Assembly: GCA_049997795.1 (NCBI GenBank)
Contig: JBEKVT010000001.1
Coordinates: 312,241 to 376,240 of the forward strand
DNA from: Minisyncoccia bacterium
GTDB taxonomy: Bacteria > Patescibacteriota > Minisyncoccia > Phycocordibacterales > PALSA-1337
Reading direction: 5' to 3'
Length of the DNA: 64,000 nt
Shown here: positions 1 through 8,777 of the stretch, piece after piece
How the letters are laid out: each line of letters opens with the position of its first letter
How positions within the stretch are numbered: position 1 is the stretch's first letter
Position numbers and translations under genes: made by a program
Notes under the pieces: model-generated
The model's input: the letters and a program-made list of their open reading frames with translations, nothing else
Told to the model about the DNA's origin: nothing
Databases searched by the model: none

Positions 1-1108
1 CTGAGCCAAGACCCTCAAGGCGCTATCGTATCGCGAGCTCAAGGCATCGCCTATTACGTCCACCGGATTGTCGAATGCCGCCATTATAGGCAGGGCCTTT
101 CTCAAGGCCTCTTTTGTCTTTTCGGCCAGTTCGATAAGCGAAAGGGAACGCGACAGATCAATCAGATCAGCGGCGATGACCGCCGGCCCGCCGGCATTTG
201 TAAGCACGATCAGCCGTTGGATTGGCCTTTTCAAGCCGAGCTGGAAGAGCTTGGCCATGTTGAAGAATTCACGCACCGATTCCACGGCGATAATACCCGC
301 CTGGCGGCAAGCAGCCGAGAAGACGGCGTCTTCCGGGGCCAAGGAACCGGTATGCGACATGACCGCCCTTAAGCCGCGAGGGCTGCGGCCGGCCTTTAGG
401 AGGACGATCGGCTTTTCCTCGGCGATCTTCTTGGCCAGCTCCATGAATCCAGGGCCGTCCGACAGCTTCTCGAGATACATTAGGATAGCCCGCGTTTCCG
501 GGTCATTTCCGAGATATTCTAGGAATTCTATCTCCGTGAGGTCGGCCTCGTTGCCGAGGCTCACGAATTTCGAGAAGCCGACGCCTTCGGAGATCGCTTG
601 GTCCAGGACGGCCGCGCCGAGAGCGCCCGATTGAGAGATGAAACCGATATCGCCCTTCAAGGGCTTGTCGGAGGCGAATGAAGCATTAAAATCCGCATGA
701 GAATCGATGGCGCCAAGGCAGTTCGGGCCAAGGAGGGAGATGCTGTGGCGTTTGGCGGCCTCCGCGACCTTATTCTCCAGTTCGGCTCCTATCAGGCCGA
801 TCTCCTTGAATCCGGCGGCTATCACGATGGCCGCGGGGATCTTCTTCGCGCCGCAGTCTTCGAGTATCGAGGGCACGACATCCGCCCGCACGGAGATGAC
901 GGCCAGGTCGATCGGCCCGGCGATGTCCTTGACCGAAGCGTAAGCCTTCAGGCCCAAGACCTCTTTCTCGGAGATGGTCACCGGATAGATGTCGCGCTTG
1001 GCGCCTTTCAGGAGATTGGATATCAGGGCGTAGCCGACCTTATTCTTGTCGTTCGAAGCGCCGATCACGGCGACGGACTTCGGATCGAAGAAATTTTGAA
1101 GGGTCATT
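1..1108 (-). CDS. ADP-forming acetyl-CoA synthetase / CoA-binding domain protein (N-terminal part; gene runs off window start)
   Basis: Reverse-strand translation from ATG at 1108-1106 reads MTLQNFFDPKSVAVIGASNDKNKVGYALISNL..., the typical NDP-forming acyl-CoA synthetase alpha/CoA-binding N-terminus. The frame stays open to position 1. It is absent from the ORF track because no stop lies inside the window. Same strand and adjacent to korAB. Confidence 0.6.
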
Positions 1109-1883
1109 TTAATAGCTGTTCCTCGAACGTCGGTTTCTCTACGCTGTAGAAGACGCCGAGAGGTATCTTCTCGCCTTCTTTCCTGGAAAGCTTGATCGCT
1201 TCGTCCGGATTCGTCGCAGGGCCGCCCTCGCGCCAGAAGACGCGTTCCTTGAAATAGTCGCGGGTGTCGAAGAAAGTGATGCACGGCTGGACGATCTCGG
1301 TGAAAGAGAAGCCCTTATGCGCCACGGCCGTCTCGATGATCTTCTTCGTTCCGGCGATGTCGCCGGCGTAGGTGCGGGCAGCGAAGGTGGCGCCGGCCGA
1401 AAGGAGCAGGGAGAACGGATCGAAAGGCTCCTCGATGCTGCCCCCGGGCGTCGATCTCCCTTTGAAGCCCTTGGGGCTGACCGCCGAAGCCTGGCCGGTG
1501 GTGAGAGCGAACACTTGGTTGTCGTGGATGAAGATCTTGATGTCGGAATTCCGTCTGGCGGCGTGGATCAGATGCTCCAGCCCTTCCGAATACGAATCGG
1601 CATCGCCGCTCATGCCGATGACCGTAAGCGCAGGGTTGGCGCACTTCACGCCGGTCATGGCGGGCACCAGGCGGCCGTGCAGGGCCGTGAAGCTGTTCAC
1701 GTTCAGGTAGTCGGAGATCTTGCCGTGGCAGCCGATGCCGGCGCAAGCCACGATATTCTCCAGTTTGATCTTGCCAGTGCCGACCATTTCCTCGATAGCT
1801 TGTCTGAATGCGACTAAGATAGCCGAGTTCGGGCAGCCGGGGCACCAAGTGATCTTTGCGGTTGTCGATAGGTTGAGAGGCAT
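1104..1883 (-). CDS. korB: 2-oxoacid:ferredoxin oxidoreductase beta subunit (TPP-binding)
   Basis: 259 aa; CPGCGH/CPGCPN TPP-binding motif near the N-terminus; immediately follows the alpha subunit with a 1-nt overlap. Confidence 0.8.
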   Translation of the reverse strand: MPLNLSTTAKITWCPGCPNSAILVAFRQAIEEMVGTGKIKLENIVACAGIGCHGKISDYLNVNSFTALHGRLVPAMTGVKCANPALTVIGMSGDADSYSEGLEHLIHAARRNSDIKIFIHDNQVFALTTGQASAVSPKGFKGRSTPGGSIEEPFDPFSLLLSAGATFAARTYAGDIAGTKKIIETAVAHKGFSFTEIVQPCITFFDTRDYFKERVFWREGGPATNPDEAIKLSRKEGEKIPLGVFYSVEKPTFEEQLLK

Positions 1884-3589
1884 TATAGTTTATCGTTAAT
1901 TTCTTCCGCCAAGGCGATCGGCTCGAACGGCCGAGAATCGTATTTCAGAATTTTGTCTGTGACGGCGATGCCGGTCTTTTCGCGGATCAAGGCCGCCAGC
2001 TGGCCGTTATGGTTGCATTCCACGTCGATCACTTTCTTCGCGCCGGACAATTCTTCGGCGACTCTCTTGGCGTCAAATGGTTCCAGCCAGACGATCTGCA
2101 CGAATTTGACGGGCTTCTTCAGATAGCGCGCGGCTTCCAGGACCGGTCCTTTGGTCGAACCCCAGAAGACGACTACATTTCCGCTTGAATGATCGCCGTG
2201 GACCTTCACAGTCTCGTGATGGTTCAACGACTTGTTCAACGTCTCTGACTTGGCGAAGCGCTTGCTCAACATGGCCTTGGTCGGCCCTGGCTCGTCGACG
2301 GTTATGCCCGCCTCGTCATGCTCGTAGCTTGTCACCTTGACGACCGTGTTCGGCGTACCGGGGAAAGCCATGGGCGAGATGCCGTCTTTGGTGATCTCGT
2401 AACGGCCATACTTCTCGCCGGCTTTCGCGCTGATGAGGCCCCGCTCTATCTTGATCCCTTCCGTCTTGATGAGGCTGGTGGCCGAATGTTCGGAGATGAC
2501 CTTGTCTAGGAGGACGATCACGGGGATCTGATATCTCCAGGCTAGATTCAAGGCTTCTACGCCGGCGCGAAAGGCCTCTTCGGAGTCGCCCGGGGCCATG
2601 ACTATCCTCGGGAATTCGCCGTGACCCGCGTGGATGACGAATCTCATATCCGTCTGGCTCGAATATGTGGGAAGGCCGGTGGCTGGCGCCTGCCTTTGGG
2701 AGACCGCGACGACCAGCGGCAATTCGGCCATGCCGGCGCAACTGAAAGCTTCTTGCATCAGGGCAAATCCGCCGCTTGCCGTGCCTATGGCCACGCGCTT
2801 GCCGGCGTACGACATGCCGAGGGCCATGTTGATGACCGAGAGCTCGCTTTCCGGCTGGATCACCCGCAAGCCGGTTTCTTTCTGTCTGTCGGCAAAGAAA
2901 GTCAGGATAGAAGTGGCCGGCGTCATCGGATAAGCCACGTAAAAATCCAGGCCGGCGGCCATAAGGCCCTTGGCAAAAGCGGTGTTGCCGTCTATAAGCT
3001 GCTTTTTTTCCGGGGCTGGATGGATCTTCTTGGTATGCCGGAAACCCGTCCCTTTCATGCGTTGATAGCCGATGTCAGCCAACTTGATGTTGAGTTCCGG
3101 ATTCTTATCCTTGAAGACGCGGCCTAAGAGGCTCTGCATCGAATCGAAAGGCAGATCCAGGAGGTAGCAGACGGCGCCCAGAGCCATCGAGTTGCGGGTG
3201 ATGGCCGGCGCGTTCATTTCCTTGACCGTGGCGGCTATGGGCATGGTCACGGCATTGCCTTTAAGGACTTCAATGTCTTGCGGTTCGAAACTGTCGGCAA
3301 AAACGACCGAATCGTGCGCCAGCTCATGCCGATGGAGCGTTATAGTCTCCTCATTCAGGGCGATAAGGACGTCCAGAGCCTCATGGTCGCACCACATCTT
3401 CTCCTTGCTGAACGACAGCCGGGCGAAATTATGCCCGCCGCGGATCAAGGACGGGTAGTCGAAAGACAGGAAGACCTCATAGCCGAGGTCGGCCAGGATC
3501 GTGCCCATCGTCGCGCCCGATTCGCGGATGCCGTCGCCGGCCGCTCCGCCGATGCCGATGGTGAAGACACTTTCGTGGGACTTTCTCAC
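1883..3589 (-). CDS. korA: 2-oxoacid:ferredoxin oxidoreductase alpha subunit (gamma-alpha fusion)
   Basis: 568 aa; N-terminal IGGAAGDGI gamma-domain signature followed by an alpha domain (YPMTPATSI...); GTG start at 3589. Confidence 0.8.
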   Translation of the reverse strand: MRKSHESVFTIGIGGAAGDGIRESGATMGTILADLGYEVFLSFDYPSLIRGGHNFARLSFSKEKMWCDHEALDVLIALNEETITLHRHELAHDSVVFADSFEPQDIEVLKGNAVTMPIAATVKEMNAPAITRNSMALGAVCYLLDLPFDSMQSLLGRVFKDKNPELNIKLADIGYQRMKGTGFRHTKKIHPAPEKKQLIDGNTAFAKGLMAAGLDFYVAYPMTPATSILTFFADRQKETGLRVIQPESELSVINMALGMSYAGKRVAIGTASGGFALMQEAFSCAGMAELPLVVAVSQRQAPATGLPTYSSQTDMRFVIHAGHGEFPRIVMAPGDSEEAFRAGVEALNLAWRYQIPVIVLLDKVISEHSATSLIKTEGIKIERGLISAKAGEKYGRYEITKDGISPMAFPGTPNTVVKVTSYEHDEAGITVDEPGPTKAMLSKRFAKSETLNKSLNHHETVKVHGDHSSGNVVVFWGSTKGPVLEAARYLKKPVKFVQIVWLEPFDAKRVAEELSGAKKVIDVECNHNGQLAALIREKTGIAVTDKILKYDSRPFEPIALAEEINDKL

Positions 3590-3594
3590 GGCGA

Positions 3595-3604
3595 AATTAT
3601 ATCA
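3595..3604 (-). promoter_or_regulatory. extended -10 box (TGATATAAT) about 8 nt upstream of the korA GTG; leaderless-type promoter
   Basis: Minus-strand reading gives TGATATAAT immediately before the korA start. Divergent from the hydrogenase promoter in a 39-bp intergenic gap. Confidence 0.4.
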
Positions 3605-3610
3605 CGATAA

Positions 3611-3619
3611 TGGTATAAT
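3611..3619 (+). promoter_or_regulatory. extended -10 box (TGGTATAAT) 10 nt upstream of the hydrogenase small-subunit ATG
   Basis: TGnTATAAT match; ATG at 3629 leaves no room for an SD, suggesting a leaderless or near-leaderless mRNA. Confidence 0.4.
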
Positions 3620-3628
3620 CACTTCCAC

Positions 3629-4111
3629 ATGGCATCGTCCCCGAAGATAAAGATCGGCTGGTTCTCGTTCTCATGCTGCGAGGACAACACCATCGTCATG
3701 ACCGAGGTCATGAATGACCATTGGCAGGAGTGGAAGGAGCTCTTCGACTTCCGCCATGCCCGGGTCTTGAAGACGGATAACGTCATGGACGATTTCGACA
3801 TCGCCTTCATAGAGGGCGCCTTGGCATCGCCGGAGCATGTCGCCAAAATCAAGGATATACGCGGCCGCTCGAAGAAGCTGGTGGCTGTCGGGTCCTGCGC
3901 TGTGATTGGCTTGCCTGCCGGCCAGCGCAACACATTCACGCTGGAGCAGAAAGCCAGCATCGATTATCTGGTCGCGCGTTTCGGCGCCCTGCCGGAAGTC
4001 AAAAAAGTCTCGGACGTCGTCAAGGTGGACGTCGAGATCCCCGGTTGTCCGATGGACCCGAAGGTCTTTCTGGAGAAAGTGAACGGATTAGTCGCGGAAC
4101 TAAGGAGTTAG
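3629..4111 (+). CDS. NiFe hydrogenase small subunit (group 3-like, NuoB/HydD-type Fe-S subunit)
   Basis: 160 aa; Cys ligand pattern (FSCCEDN ... GSCAVIG ... GCPM) typical of short group-3 small subunits; directly upstream of the large subunit. Confidence 0.7.
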   Translation: MASSPKIKIGWFSFSCCEDNTIVMTEVMNDHWQEWKELFDFRHARVLKTDNVMDDFDIAFIEGALASPEHVAKIKDIRGRSKKLVAVGSCAVIGLPAGQRNTFTLEQKASIDYLVARFGALPEVKKVSDVVKVDVEIPGCPMDPKVFLEKVNGLVAELRS

Positions 4112-4142
4112 TTGCCATCGATCGATAATCATTGACACCACC

Positions 4143-5438
4143 ATGCACCGCATAGATCTGAGACTGGACCACATAACGAAAGTCGAAGGCGACGCCTCGA
4201 TGGACGTCGTCGTGGAGGACGGCAAGGTCACCGACGTCAGGTTCGCCATCGTTGAGTACAAGCGCTTCTTCACCACCGCCATGAAGGGAAAATCGATCGC
4301 CGCCATCCCTCAGCATCTGGCCCGGATCTGCGGCACGTGCTCGAACGCCCATGTCATGGCCGCGATCACCGCTTGCGAGGACGCCCTCGGCATAGAACCC
4401 ACGCCGCAAACTAAGCTCCTCCGCAGGCTCGTCATGCACAGCCTGATGATACGCGACCACGCCCTGCATCTCTATCTCTTCGTCATGCCGGATCTCTTCG
4501 GCAAAGACGCCTTCCTGGACTTCGACGAGAATAATCCGGAGCAGCACCAGCTTCTCCATGACGGCTTCGATATCAAATCGGCCGGCAATCATCTGGCAGA
4601 GCTCGTGGCCGGCCGGAGCGTCCACGCCAACTTCCCGGTCATAGGCGGATTCTTGAAATTCCCATCTGCCGAAGGCGCGGCCGAATCGGTCCAGGAATTG
4701 AAAGCCGCCAGGCCGGCCGTCTTGCGCTTGATAGAAATCTTCAGAAAGGCGCCGTTCCACTTCGACAGAAAGACGAAATACATGGCCCTTGTCCAGAACG
4801 ACACATTCGGATATCTGGGCGACAAGATCGTGACCAGCCGTGGAGAAACTTACGAACGCAAGGATTTCCGCTCGCATCTCGAGCATGTGGCTCTGCCGTA
4901 TTCGCAGGCTTCGGCTTACACCTACAAAGGCGAAAGCTATATGGTCGGCGCTTTAGCGAGATTGAATCTTGCCAAGGATAAATTACATCCTGGTACGAAA
5001 AAATCAGCCGCCGAGACACTGAAGCTATTTCCATCCACGGACATTTTCCATAACAATCTGGCGCAAGCCATCGAGATCCTCCACTCCATAGACGAATCGA
5101 TCGACATCCTCTCTAAGAACTCATTCAAGCCGGAACCTGTAGTAAAAGTCCCGATGCGCGCGGGGACCGGTGTCGGCGTCATCGAAGCGCCGCGCGGCAC
5201 GCTCTATCATAAGGTCGTCATCGACAAAGACGGCATCGTAGAGAATGGGGAAGTCATCGTGCCGACCGGCCAGAATCAGGTCAACATCGAGCGCGACGTC
5301 GGCACTTTAGTCGAAGAGCTTTTGCCAGATGCCCCGAAGGAGAAGATCAATTTCGAGATAGAGAAGCTCATCCGCGCCTACGACCCCTGCATGAGCTGCG
5401 GGGCGCACTTCCTCAAGGTCAAGTGGCAAGAAAGGTGA
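4143..5438 (+). CDS. NiFe hydrogenase large (catalytic) subunit
   Basis: 431 aa; N-terminal L1 motif RICGTCSNAH and C-terminal L2 motif DPCMSCGAH, the two Ni-Fe ligating CxxC pairs. Confidence 0.85.
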   Translation: MHRIDLRLDHITKVEGDASMDVVVEDGKVTDVRFAIVEYKRFFTTAMKGKSIAAIPQHLARICGTCSNAHVMAAITACEDALGIEPTPQTKLLRRLVMHSLMIRDHALHLYLFVMPDLFGKDAFLDFDENNPEQHQLLHDGFDIKSAGNHLAELVAGRSVHANFPVIGGFLKFPSAEGAAESVQELKAARPAVLRLIEIFRKAPFHFDRKTKYMALVQNDTFGYLGDKIVTSRGETYERKDFRSHLEHVALPYSQASAYTYKGESYMVGALARLNLAKDKLHPGTKKSAAETLKLFPSTDIFHNNLAQAIEILHSIDESIDILSKNSFKPEPVVKVPMRAGTGVGVIEAPRGTLYHKVVIDKDGIVENGEVIVPTGQNQVNIERDVGTLVEELLPDAPKEKINFEIEKLIRAYDPCMSCGAHFLKVKWQER

Positions 5439-5508
5439 TTGCAAATCAGCGGACTTCGGCTATACTGCCGGAAACGTTCGTTGAACAATTTTTCGAAAGG
5501 AGTGTCCG

Positions 5509-5970
5509 ATGAATCATGAAAACCTGACCGGTCCGCAGCTGTTCCTGCGGTTCGCTTGGCCGTGTGCTAGCTACAGACTGATGATGGGGAAGATCACACA
5601 AGCGCAATATGATGAGCTGGAAAAGCTGGTCAAATCCGAGACCGAGCCGGATATCGCATTGCTGATGGCTTGTTTTCCGAACGCCGTGGCTGATCTGCGC
5701 GAGTACGCCATCAATGAACGCCGGCTCCATGATCTGTGGTCTCTGACTACCGTTCTCGGATATTGGCGAGTCCATAAAGGCATGGAGGCGGGATGCGAGA
5801 CGGTCAAATGCACGGTCTCCAGATGTCCGCAGAACGGTCTCGATGTGACGGCGAGCTCCGGCGGTGAGAGCTTCAGGGCCTTGAACCCATACAAGCTGCG
5901 GTTATATCAAGACGACAAGGTGCTGGTGCATCAGCGCTGCGTCATCATAAAAGACATGTCGCCGGTGTGA
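5509..5970 (+). CDS. hypothetical small protein with a C-x4-C-x4-C cluster (CETVKCTVSRC), inside the hydrogenase cluster
   Basis: 153-aa ORF between the hydrogenase large subunit and the maturation protease. No family recognised. Cys spacing suggests metal binding. Confidence 0.35.
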   Translation: MNHENLTGPQLFLRFAWPCASYRLMMGKITQAQYDELEKLVKSETEPDIALLMACFPNAVADLREYAINERRLHDLWSLTTVLGYWRVHKGMEAGCETVKCTVSRCPQNGLDVTASSGGESFRALNPYKLRLYQDDKVLVHQRCVIIKDMSPV

Positions 5971-5991
5971 CCGAGCTTTCGGCCGATGTCG

Positions 5992-6381
5992 TTATGAGCG
6001 ATCCGCGAGGATCGCTTTTTTTATCGCTTCTATCGCCGACCGTTCGCTGAGATCCGGTGGTATGCCGATGACCGTCACTCTTTTGATCTTCTCGAGCTTC
6101 TGCAGGTACCGTAAGTTCGCCAAGGCGTCGAAATCATGCAAGGAAAAGCGCGGCGCGGCGGTAAATGATCCTAAATCGTCGAAAACGACGGCCTCCTTCG
6201 GACCGATCACGGTATCGATAACGGTCAATTCCTCCGGCGAGTCCCATTCTTCGTTCGGGTCTTTTGCCTCGAATGCGACGCCGGGAAGCGCCCGGCGAAG
6301 CTCCGGGAGGATCTTCAAGGGCAGCGAATCCTTGTCCAACACCTCGTTCCCGAAGACGAAGACTCTTTTCGTTTCCTTCAT
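5992..6381 (-). CDS. hydrogenase maturation endopeptidase (HycI/HybD-like)
   Basis: 129 aa; VFVFGNEVLDKD... N-terminus, HDFDALANLRYL and VIGIPPD segments align with the HycI family pattern (VGN...D, His, IGIQP). Confidence 0.55.
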   Translation of the reverse strand: MKETKRVFVFGNEVLDKDSLPLKILPELRRALPGVAFEAKDPNEEWDSPEELTVIDTVIGPKEAVVFDDLGSFTAAPRFSLHDFDALANLRYLQKLEKIKRVTVIGIPPDLSERSAIEAIKKAILADRS

Positions 6382-8777
6382 TTTTCCAACCTCTTCTCCT
6401 CCTCCGCCACGGCGATGGTCGTCTTGATGACGGTGTCCGGATTCAGGGACATGCTCTCGATGCCGGCTTCGACCAGGAAACGGGCGAATTCGGGGTGGTC
6501 GGACGGCGCCTGGCCGCAGATGCCGATGTATTTCGATTTGGCGCGGCAGATGCCGATGATCTCCTTGACCATCTTCATGACCGCCGGATTCAATTCGTTC
6601 CCCACATGGCTCACTATGCCTGAGTCGCGGTCGAGACCGAGGACGAGCTGTGTCAGGTCGTTCGAGCCGATGGACATGCCGTCGAAGACGGACAGGAATT
6701 CATCGGCCAGCAGGACGTTCGACGGGATCTCGCACATGACGTAGGTGGTGCAGTCGAGGCCGCAGGACTTCATGATGTCGCGGGTCTTCCGGCCTTCCTC
6801 CGGCGTGCGGCAGAAGGGGACCATCGGGATGACGTTCCCGAGGCCCATCTCGTCCCTGACCTTCTTCATGGCCCGGCACTCGAGCTTGAAAGCTTCGGCG
6901 AACTTCGGGTCGTAATAGCGGGAAGCGCCGCGCCAGCCTATCATCGGGTTCTCTTCTTCCGGCTCATAGGCCTCGCCGCCCAGGAGCGTCCGGTATTCGT
7001 TGGTCTTGAAGTCGGAGAAGCGCACGATGACGGGATTCGGGTGGAAGGCCGCGCCGATCTTCGCTATGCCATAGGCCAGGTTATCCACGTAGAATTGCGC
7101 GCGGTCGGTCCAGCCGGCCGTCTTCTTGTCGATCTTCTTCTTGATGGACGCTGCGAGCTTGCCGTAATCCAGAAGAGCCATGGGATGGATGCCGATCGAG
7201 CCGGCGATGATGAATTCCTCGCGGGCCAGGCCGACGCCGGAATTCGGCAGGAAAGACTTCTCCCAGGCCATGTCCGGCGTAGCGATATTGACCATGATAT
7301 GGGTCTTCGGCTTCGGGATGGTCGTGACGTCGTGCTCTATGACCTCGAATCCGAGCTTGCCGTCATAGACCATGCCTTCGGCGCCGCTCGTGTCCACGGT
7401 CACGATCTGTCCGGTCTTCAATTTCTTGGTGGCATTCTCGCAGCCGACAACGGCCGGGATGCCGAGCTCGCGGCTGACGATCGCGGCATGAGAAGTGCGG
7501 CCGCCTTTGTCCGTCACGATGGCCGAGGCGATCTTCATGATCGGCTCCCAGTCAGGATCGGTCATGTCGGTGACCAGGACTTCGCCGGCCTTGAATTCGT
7601 GCATATTCTTGGCGTCCAGGATGACCCGGGCGGTGCCGACGGCGATCTTCGAGCCGACGGAGGCGCCTTTGGTGAGGAGCTCGCCCTTCCCTTTGAGCTG
7701 GTATTCCTTGAGCTTGTTGTAATCGCGTCCGGCATGGATGGTCTCCGGCCTGGCCTGGACGATGTAGAGTTCGCCGGAGACGCCGTCCTTGGCCCATTCC
7801 ATGTCCATAGGCGTCCACTTGCCGCCGTTCTTCTCGGTGTAATGTTCCTCGATGATGAGGCCCCATTTGGCCAAGGCACGAGCTTCGTCATCGGAAAGGA
7901 TGAACGAGTCTCTCTCTTTAGCCGTGGCAGGGATGATCTTGGTGGCCTTGAGGCCGGTAGAGACGCCATAGATCATCTTGCGGTTCTTGACGCCTAGCTT
8001 CTTCGACAGAAGCGAGCTCGGGGCGGTGTTCAAGGTCTTCTTGAAGACGATGAATTCGTCCGGCGTGACCTCGCCCTGGACGATCATCTCGCCTAAGCCC
8101 CAGGAGCCGTTGATGACCACGATATCTTTGAAGCCCGATTCGGTGTCGAGGGTGAACATCACGCCGGAGCAGCCCTTGTCCGAACGGACCATCTTCTCCA
8201 CGCCGACCGACAGGGCCACGGCGAGATGGTCGAAGCCCTTGTCATGGCGGTATGAGATGGCGCGGTCGTTGAAGAGGGAAGCCATGGCCCATTTGACGGC
8301 CAGGACGACGTGCTCTTTGCCGCGCACGCCGAGATAGGTCTCGTGCTCGCCGGCGAAGCTGGCCCCCGGCAAGTCTTCGGCCGTGGCGCTCGAACGGCAA
8401 GCCACGTCGCATTTGGCGCCGTATTTTTTCTCCATATTCTCATAGCCAGCAAAGATCTCTTTTTGCAGATCAGCCGGCATCTCGGCTTTTTCGATAGCTT
8501 TCCTGACGATCTCGCCGCGCTTGGCCAAATCGTCGAGATCCTTGGTATTCAAACCCTCGAGCGTTTTTGCGATGAATTTATCCAAGCCGGTCTGCTTCAG
8601 AAAGTGGCGATAGGCGGTAGCGGTCACGATGAAGCCGGAAGGCACGCGGACTCCCTTGGGCGTGAGAGCGGCGATCATCTCGCCGAGCGACGCATTCTTG
8701 CCGCCGACTTCGCCGACGTCCTTGATGCCGACTTCTTCCATCTTCACGGTCAATCTCTTGGCTTGGTCAGTGCTCAT
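6378..8777 (-). CDS. ppsA: phosphoenolpyruvate synthase (pyruvate, water dikinase)
   Basis: 799 aa; ATP-grasp N-domain, phosphohistidine region GGRTSHAAIVSRELGIPAVVG, C-terminal PEP-utilising TIM barrel. Confidence 0.9.
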   Translation of the reverse strand: MSTDQAKRLTVKMEEVGIKDVGEVGGKNASLGEMIAALTPKGVRVPSGFIVTATAYRHFLKQTGLDKFIAKTLEGLNTKDLDDLAKRGEIVRKAIEKAEMPADLQKEIFAGYENMEKKYGAKCDVACRSSATAEDLPGASFAGEHETYLGVRGKEHVVLAVKWAMASLFNDRAISYRHDKGFDHLAVALSVGVEKMVRSDKGCSGVMFTLDTESGFKDIVVINGSWGLGEMIVQGEVTPDEFIVFKKTLNTAPSSLLSKKLGVKNRKMIYGVSTGLKATKIIPATAKERDSFILSDDEARALAKWGLIIEEHYTEKNGGKWTPMDMEWAKDGVSGELYIVQARPETIHAGRDYNKLKEYQLKGKGELLTKGASVGSKIAVGTARVILDAKNMHEFKAGEVLVTDMTDPDWEPIMKIASAIVTDKGGRTSHAAIVSRELGIPAVVGCENATKKLKTGQIVTVDTSGAEGMVYDGKLGFEVIEHDVTTIPKPKTHIMVNIATPDMAWEKSFLPNSGVGLAREEFIIAGSIGIHPMALLDYGKLAASIKKKIDKKTAGWTDRAQFYVDNLAYGIAKIGAAFHPNPVIVRFSDFKTNEYRTLLGGEAYEPEEENPMIGWRGASRYYDPKFAEAFKLECRAMKKVRDEMGLGNVIPMVPFCRTPEEGRKTRDIMKSCGLDCTTYVMCEIPSNVLLADEFLSVFDGMSIGSNDLTQLVLGLDRDSGIVSHVGNELNPAVMKMVKEIIGICRAKSKYIGICGQAPSDHPEFARFLVEAGIESMSLNPDTVIKTTIAVAEEEKRLEK

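Follow-up and report, generated by a model that had tools for sequence, protein, structure and literature searches.

A Patescibacteria hyd2-type [NiFe]-hydrogenase locus, its divergent 2-oxoacid oxidation genes and its likely ferredoxin partners

Introduction

How does a [NiFe]-hydrogenase that seems to be made of nothing but a small and a large subunit exchange its electrons with metabolism? This question is raised by a gene cluster of a Minisyncoccia bacterium, located near the beginning of a 64-kb stretch of DNA, which was analysed as a whole and is called the window here. A preliminary description regarded the cluster as a minimal two-gene hydrogenase, without the usual diaphorase/FeS subunits in the window, that would couple 2-oxoacid oxidation directly to H2 via ferredoxin. 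The genes it listed, i.e. hydS, hydL with both Ni-Fe motifs, an ORF of 153 aa, a HycI-like gene and korAB-acd, are all present (Table 1). The same architecture was already published as the 'hyd2' clade of CPR bacteria, a group-3b-related hydrogenase without beta and gamma subunits and with truncated small subunits of 164 aa mean length, for which electron partners and function were left 'uncertain' (Jaffe et al., 2020, BMC Biol 18:69; PMC7304191). Judged from its sequence, the locus is a member of this already described Patescibacteria family and not a new minimal enzyme; the host, the 3b-related HydL, the truncated HydS and the lack of adjacent beta and gamma genes are the diagnostic features that fit the assignment.

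Table 1. Genes and sequence elements at the hydrogenase locus (positions refer to the window)
Feature	Position	Strand	Description
acd	1-1101	-	ADP-forming acyl/acetyl-CoA synthetase, N-terminal 367 aa; Pfam CoA_binding_2, Succ_CoA_lig, Ligase_CoA_2
korB	1104-1883	-	2-oxoacid:ferredoxin oxidoreductase beta subunit (TPP, one [4Fe-4S]); Pfam TPP_enzyme_C, PFO_beta_C
korA	1883-3589	-	Fused gamma-alpha 2-oxoacid:ferredoxin oxidoreductase subunit, GTG start; Pfam POR, POR_N
korA extended -10 box TGATATAAT	3596-3604	-	6 nt before GTG; transcript predicted to be leaderless
hydS extended -10 box TGGTATAAT	3611-3619	+	9 nt before ATG; predicted 5'UTR of 0-3 nt
hydS	3629-4111	+	160 aa, truncated small subunit, N-terminal domain only; Pfam Oxidored_q6, 3.8e-18
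hydL	4143-5438	+	431 aa, [NiFe]-hydrogenase large subunit, group-3b-related; Pfam NiFeSe_Hases
orf153	5509-5970	+	153 aa, accessory protein; contains CETVKCTVSRC
HycI-like ORF	5992-6381	-	129 aa, probable HycI/HybD-family endopeptidase; Pfam HycI 5.7e-4, 20.2 bits (cut-off 23)
Terminator-like hairpin and T-run	5996-6027	+	Directly 3' of orf153; 9-bp stem, 5 GC pairs, TTTTTTT
ppsA	6378-8777	-	PEP synthase / pyruvate, water dikinase; Pfam PPDK_N, PEP-utilizers, PEP-utilizers_C

The hydrogenase subunits

HydL carries RICGTCSNAH in its N-terminal and DPCMSCGAH in its C-terminal part, i.e. the patterns RxCGxCxxxH and DPCxxCxxH with the four Ni-Fe cysteines that characterise [NiFe] large subunits, and its translation ends nine residues later with the tail FLKVKWQER. 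The C-terminal motif is kept in every relative compared, and a conserved tail (FLKVKW...) extends 7-11 residues past it. The Pfam score is 109 bits (NiFeSe_Hases, cut-off 25.8). In the PDB, alpha subunits of group 3b come closest (5yxy and 9nez, E ~1e-66), and the bit scores of 226-221 for 5yxy, 9nez and 9e15 compare with 158 for Mvh (2e-45), 122 for Hox (3e-34) and 105 for Frh, which places HydL closest to the group 3b references. The best NCBIfam models, ShyA with 268 bits (cut-off 700) and HydA with 248 bits (cut-off 880), were scored far under their cut-offs, hence HydL is no equivalog of either. The search yielded 6213 homologues at E <= 0.001, and all those bearing organism names among the 120 matches listed belong to the Patescibacteria group.

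The small subunit HydS has only four cysteines (C16, C17, C90 and C140), for the proximal cluster, and the family signature SCCEDNT, which is kept in 37 of 45 relatives. Its residues 6-150 align to residues 2-145 of sulfhydrogenase delta chains of 256-266 aa, so that the domain for the medial and distal clusters is missing. A length of approximately 155-170 aa is typical among the relatives, and HydS thus differs from a group 3b delta subunit, i.e. a protein of approximately 250 aa with proximal, medial and distal clusters. Furthermore, the Pfam scan found no hydrogenase beta or gamma subunits, no diaphorase and no hyp genes among the predicted proteins between position 1 and approximately 60.9 kb, as the preliminary description had stated for the beta/gamma subunits. 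AsrA/AsrB-like proteins were likewise absent from the scanned window and from a 6.4-kb extension, and hence the locus does not co-encode the beta and gamma subunits of the group 3b heterotetramer. Two-cluster ferredoxin-motif proteins adjoin hydSL in none of approximately 50 loci. The picture of a [NiFe]-hydrogenase that resembles group 3b, has one cluster in its small subunit and lacks the canonical beta and gamma subunits was therefore corroborated.

Candidate electron partners beyond the window start

The enzyme looks partnerless because its likely partners are encoded just past the window edge. Another contig (L056) is 100% identical to positions 1-5198 and continues beyond the window start with the remainder of acd, an SDR gene, a Pyr_redox_2 flavoprotein (fdr, 411 aa), a Fer4_13/15 ferredoxin (fdx, 86 aa), Nfu, NifU_N and NifS. 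Acd, which runs off the window start, has 679 aa in L056, and this full protein matches NCBIfam AcCoA-syn-alpha with 508 bits. The genes fdx and fdr lie at about -3.3 to -1.8 kb from the window start, encoded on the strand of hydSL and following immediately after nifS-nifU-nfu, with fdr ending 1.8 kb before the window begins. The fdr product finds its best PDB matches in ferredoxin, rubredoxin and putidaredoxin reductases, and its top NCBIfam match is PadH, annotated as epsilon subunit of the NADH-dependent phenylglyoxylate dehydrogenase, an OFOR-type complex with PadH as its NAD-linking subunit. The 86-aa protein matches single-cluster ferredoxins and has a conserved CxxAxxC...CP motif with three cysteines, which suggests a ferredoxin of the [3Fe-4S] type. 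The small ferredoxin and the flavoprotein reductase are thus the likely electron partners of HydSL. The enzyme can no longer be called partnerless, since the same genome encodes both of these, the ferredoxin and the FAD/NAD(P) protein of the ferredoxin-reductase kind, close to it. In the simplest relatives fdx, fdr, hydS and hydL follow each other closely as one operon, whereas the window's lineage has an inverted acd-korB-korA block and the SDR gene between fdr and hydS.

The divergent neighbour corresponds to an alpha-beta-type OFOR, with a fused gamma-alpha subunit, a TPP/[4Fe-4S] beta subunit and no delta ferredoxin subunit. KorA exceeds the cut-off of NCBIfam TIGR03710 (553.8 bits, cut-off 482.75) and its N-terminus VRKSHESVFTIGIGGAAGDG agrees with those of its orthologues; KorB stays below the cut-offs of both PRK11866 (309 bits, cut-off 402) and TIGR02177 (250 bits, cut-off 261.9). 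The metabolic context also includes ppsA, with its link to pyruvate, as the gene upstream of the protease ORF.

The conservation of these genes was compared in 52 species-level hyd2 loci with varying denominators, where the 41 loci given for KorB are the relatives with enough upstream sequence. FdR is present in 21/31 loci, Fd in 18/30, KorB in 26/41 and Acd in 19/34. The divergent pairing of hydSL with korAB-acd, which had been pointed out from the window only, is accordingly a conserved trait. Approximately one third of the loci is without Fd/FdR within 10 kb and approximately one third without korAB, so that neither pair is obligatory in cis.

Promoters and transcript ends

The gap between korA and hydS comprises only 39 bp (3590-3628) and contains two opposed TGnTATAAT boxes, whose spacers fit leaderless transcripts as previously proposed. 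No Shine-Dalgarno sequence was found upstream of hydS, and the -10 box ends 6 nt (korA) and 9 nt (hydS) before the start codon, within the approximately 6-10 nt expected of leaderless genes. Leaderless transcription of korA and hydS is hence predicted from the -10 placement. The sequence TGNTATAAT occurs five times in 64 kb, where 0.43 occurrences would be expected, a count not attained in any of 100 shuffled sequences. The korA layout, i.e. TGnTATAAT, 6-7 nt and the start codon, recurs in nine relatives; similar boxes 6-11 nt before hydS were also seen in nine, and several relatives have a shared korA/hydS promoter region of 23-86 bp. Such a layout is, however, no peculiarity of the locus, because it is common across the window: of 25 operon-first genes, 13 show a TANNNT box at 4-12 nt from the start, with a peak at 6-9 nt that is approximately 21-fold over background per position, and Shine-Dalgarno-like motifs precede only 9/59 genes. 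A Shine-Dalgarno sequence precedes orf153 (AGGAG, 8 nt before ATG). The hairpin behind orf153 likely marks the 3' end of the hydS-hydL-orf153 transcript, as a consensus match of a kind that is not enriched in comparison with shuffled sequence.

The accessory protein and the putative protease

The third gene of the predicted transcript, orf153, had been described as encoding an extra Cys-cluster protein. The cysteines of CETVKCTVSRC are not conserved in the family, and the predicted structure consists of an N-terminal five-helix domain (95 residues) and a C-terminal HypC-like OB fold, i.e. the core fold of the HypC/HupF family. Based on this model, a maturation or chaperone factor is more likely than a redox protein. 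The fold match to HypC is not specific among OB folds, and orf153 has no Pfam match at E <= 0.01, including HupF_HypC (PF01455). Moreover, it has no free N-terminal cysteine of the kind essential in HypC (Cys-2), because the helical domain precedes the OB fold; the candidate C96 is internal and present in only approximately 60% of family members. In about 31/35 loci orf153 and/or DUF6390 occur.

The HycI-like ORF had been counted to the hydrogenase run. It is located on the opposite strand downstream of ppsA, with a 4-nt overlap (ATGA) between the ppsA stop and its own ATG, which places it outside the hyd transcript and suggests translational coupling to ppsA. Weak HycI matches were obtained for 11/15 family members, and no other family matches consistently. 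The family profile found no HycI/HybD chains in the PDB, and the single-sequence AF2 model (pLDDT 45) was too low in confidence to be used. D18, D56 and H82 are invariant in the family and appear in the order expected for a metal triad, presumably equivalent to E16/D62/H93 of HybD. The gene is found within 10 kb downstream of hydL in 33/35 loci. Together with the sub-threshold Pfam matches, this makes the 129-aa protein a probable maturation endopeptidase for the C-terminal tail of HydL.

Proposed function and competing interpretations

We consider a ferredoxin-centred hub that joins 2-oxoacid oxidation, H2 and NAD(P)H to be the best reading of the locus and rather probable. Ferredoxin would be the shared one-electron carrier. 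The substrate of KorAB would be a 2-oxoacid, probably pyruvate coming from PpsA, whose oxidation would deliver reduced ferredoxin, while ACD would conserve the acyl-CoA as ATP. HydSL would exchange electrons between ferredoxin and H+/H2 and the flavoprotein between ferredoxin and NAD(P)+/NAD(P)H, so that ferredoxin and flavoprotein would functionally stand in for the beta/gamma diaphorase of the classical group 3b. In this scheme the accessory protein orf153, with its HypC-like OB fold, would assist maturation or act as a chaperone, the HydL tail would be removed by the 129-aa endopeptidase, and both operons would start at extended -10 promoters abutting the start codons. The electron path, the direction of H2 flux and the roles of orf153 and the protease are proposed from gene content, homology, synteny and motifs. 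The functionality of HydSL is assumed here, since the 70 kb examined yielded no genes for Hyp maturation. Against the hub it can be said that the potential of a [3Fe-4S]-type ferredoxin may be too positive to evolve H2 efficiently, that neither fdx-fdr nor korAB is obligatory in cis, and that the FdR/Fd pair could serve KorAB instead, as PadH serves its enzyme. From the earlier idea of coupling 2-oxoacid oxidation to H2 via ferredoxin, the coupling itself stays plausible because the korAB-acd pairing is conserved, but the enzyme is not without partners of its own, with fdx-fdr nearby.

A competing view is that HydSL, ferredoxin and FdR are the four components of a dedicated bidirectional hydrogenase linked to NAD(P)H, functionally analogous to groups 3b and 3d. 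The acd-korBA block would then be an insertion specific to the lineage and would exchange no electrons directly with the hydrogenase. We regard this as unlikely. Six loci have a tight fdx-fdr-hydS-hydL operon, with gaps of 2-16 nt or 4-nt overlaps in five of them (L045, L047, L053, L038 and L039) and a FdR-HydS gap of 6 nt in L035, and the flavoprotein is a member of the ferredoxin-NAD(P)+ reductase family. The window-type loci, with the inverted korBA-acd block between fdr and hydS, keep order and strand of the four genes around it. Yet, most close relatives retain the insertion, and the distance of just tens of bp between the korA and hydS starts suggests that co-regulation is under selection; moreover, free ferredoxin reduced by the OFOR would be available to the hydrogenase anyway.

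It appears improbable to us that the enzyme is a truly minimal heterodimer without any diaphorase, in which HydS takes electrons from KorAB by docking to the KorB [4Fe-4S] cluster or via a diffusible ferredoxin. Under this assumption the cluster would represent a '2-oxoacid hydrogen-lyase' with ACD, and Fd/FdR would be unrelated or serve KorAB only. The conserved divergent pairing, found also where FdR is missing within 10 kb (L002, L031 and L044), the short promoter region common to both operons in several relatives, and the single cluster of an alpha-beta-type OFOR, which needs an acceptor, are all in line with it. On the other hand, at least 10 loci have hydSL in an operon with fdx-fdr and no korAB nearby, and the most divergent hyd2 loci (L049, L051 and L054; 44-51% identity) are without korAB. 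Moreover, to our knowledge all other one-cluster small subunits (HoxY, bifurcating HydS, group 4) pass electrons to a dedicated Fe-S partner.

Finally, a non-functional or non-catalytic (sensory or remnant) hydrogenase, as conceivable in reduced genomes that may lack the Hyp machinery, is very improbable: the Pfam scan of the window to approximately 60.9 kb revealed no hypA-F, nor did the Pfam calls of the extension, nor were there any hyp genes within 10 kb of approximately 50 hyd2 loci (motif search), but the sequence seen is only approximately 10% of the genome and Hyp genes may sit elsewhere, the four Ni-Fe cysteines, the processing tail and the proximal-cluster cysteines are kept at 44-93% identity, the homologues are numerous, and a putative dedicated protease and HypC-like proteins co-occur.

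Comparison with known hydrogenase systems

The group 3b sulfhydrogenases (Pyrococcus furiosus SHI/SHII and the cytosolic NiFe hydrogenase of T. kodakarensis; 5yxy, 9nez) have the nearest solved large subunits, matched over the full length, and HydL shares their L1/L2 motifs, the short C-terminal tail and likely also a cytoplasmic, NAD(P)-linked function. Their delta subunit of 256-266 aa, with the medial and distal clusters in its C-terminal domain, contrasts with the single-cluster HydS. The place of the AsrA/AsrB-like beta and gamma subunits is apparently taken by unrelated proteins, a single-cluster ferredoxin and a ferredoxin reductase of the glutathione-reductase fold.

Short small subunits of 179-189 aa are also known from group 3d HoxY (5xf9) and HydS of the bifurcating HydABCSL (7t2r), which contain the proximal cluster only and have a separate Fe-S/flavin module as their electron acceptor. 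HydL is less similar to these enzymes (E 3e-34 to 6e-41), and their diaphorase is a NuoEFG-like HoxFU/HydABC module, whereas a ferredoxin-reductase-type flavoprotein and a free ferredoxin are encoded here.

The metabolic logic is shared with fermentation modules of PFOR/OFOR, hydrogenase and ADP-forming acetyl-CoA synthetase as in Pyrococcus (POR-ACS-hydrogenase) and hydrogenosomes, in which a 2-oxoacid is converted to acyl-CoA, CO2 and reduced ferredoxin, the ferredoxin yields H2 and the acyl-CoA yields ATP. The hydrogenase of those modules is a membrane-bound enzyme of group 4 or an FeFe hydrogenase, whereas the present locus combines all parts in a compact cluster and has a NiFe enzyme of two subunits in the cytoplasm.

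Among maturation factors, approximately 55 C-terminal residues of orf153 superpose on HypC/HupF (2ot2, 2z1c, 3vyr-3vyu) at 1.3-1.8 A with 16-23% identity. A 'VLVH' strand with a near-invariant His, a Cys just before strand 1 in most members and a gene adjoining the hydrogenase and its putative protease add to the likeness; the Cys missing in approximately 40% of the family and the lack of a Pfam HupF_HypC match set orf153 apart.

The closest counterpart is the published hyd2 (PMC7304191), from which the locus shows no essential difference: both share the Patescibacteria host, the 3b-related HydL, the size of HydS (160 aa against the published mean), beta and gamma subunits that are not co-located, and a PF07992 flavoprotein, a small Fe-S protein and a HypC-like family nearby. 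To this picture our analysis adds that some lineages have the Fd and FdR genes in a tight operon together with hydSL, that korBA-acd is an inverted insertion into the fdx-fdr-hydSL operon in the window's lineage, and that the divergent probable protease is almost universal.

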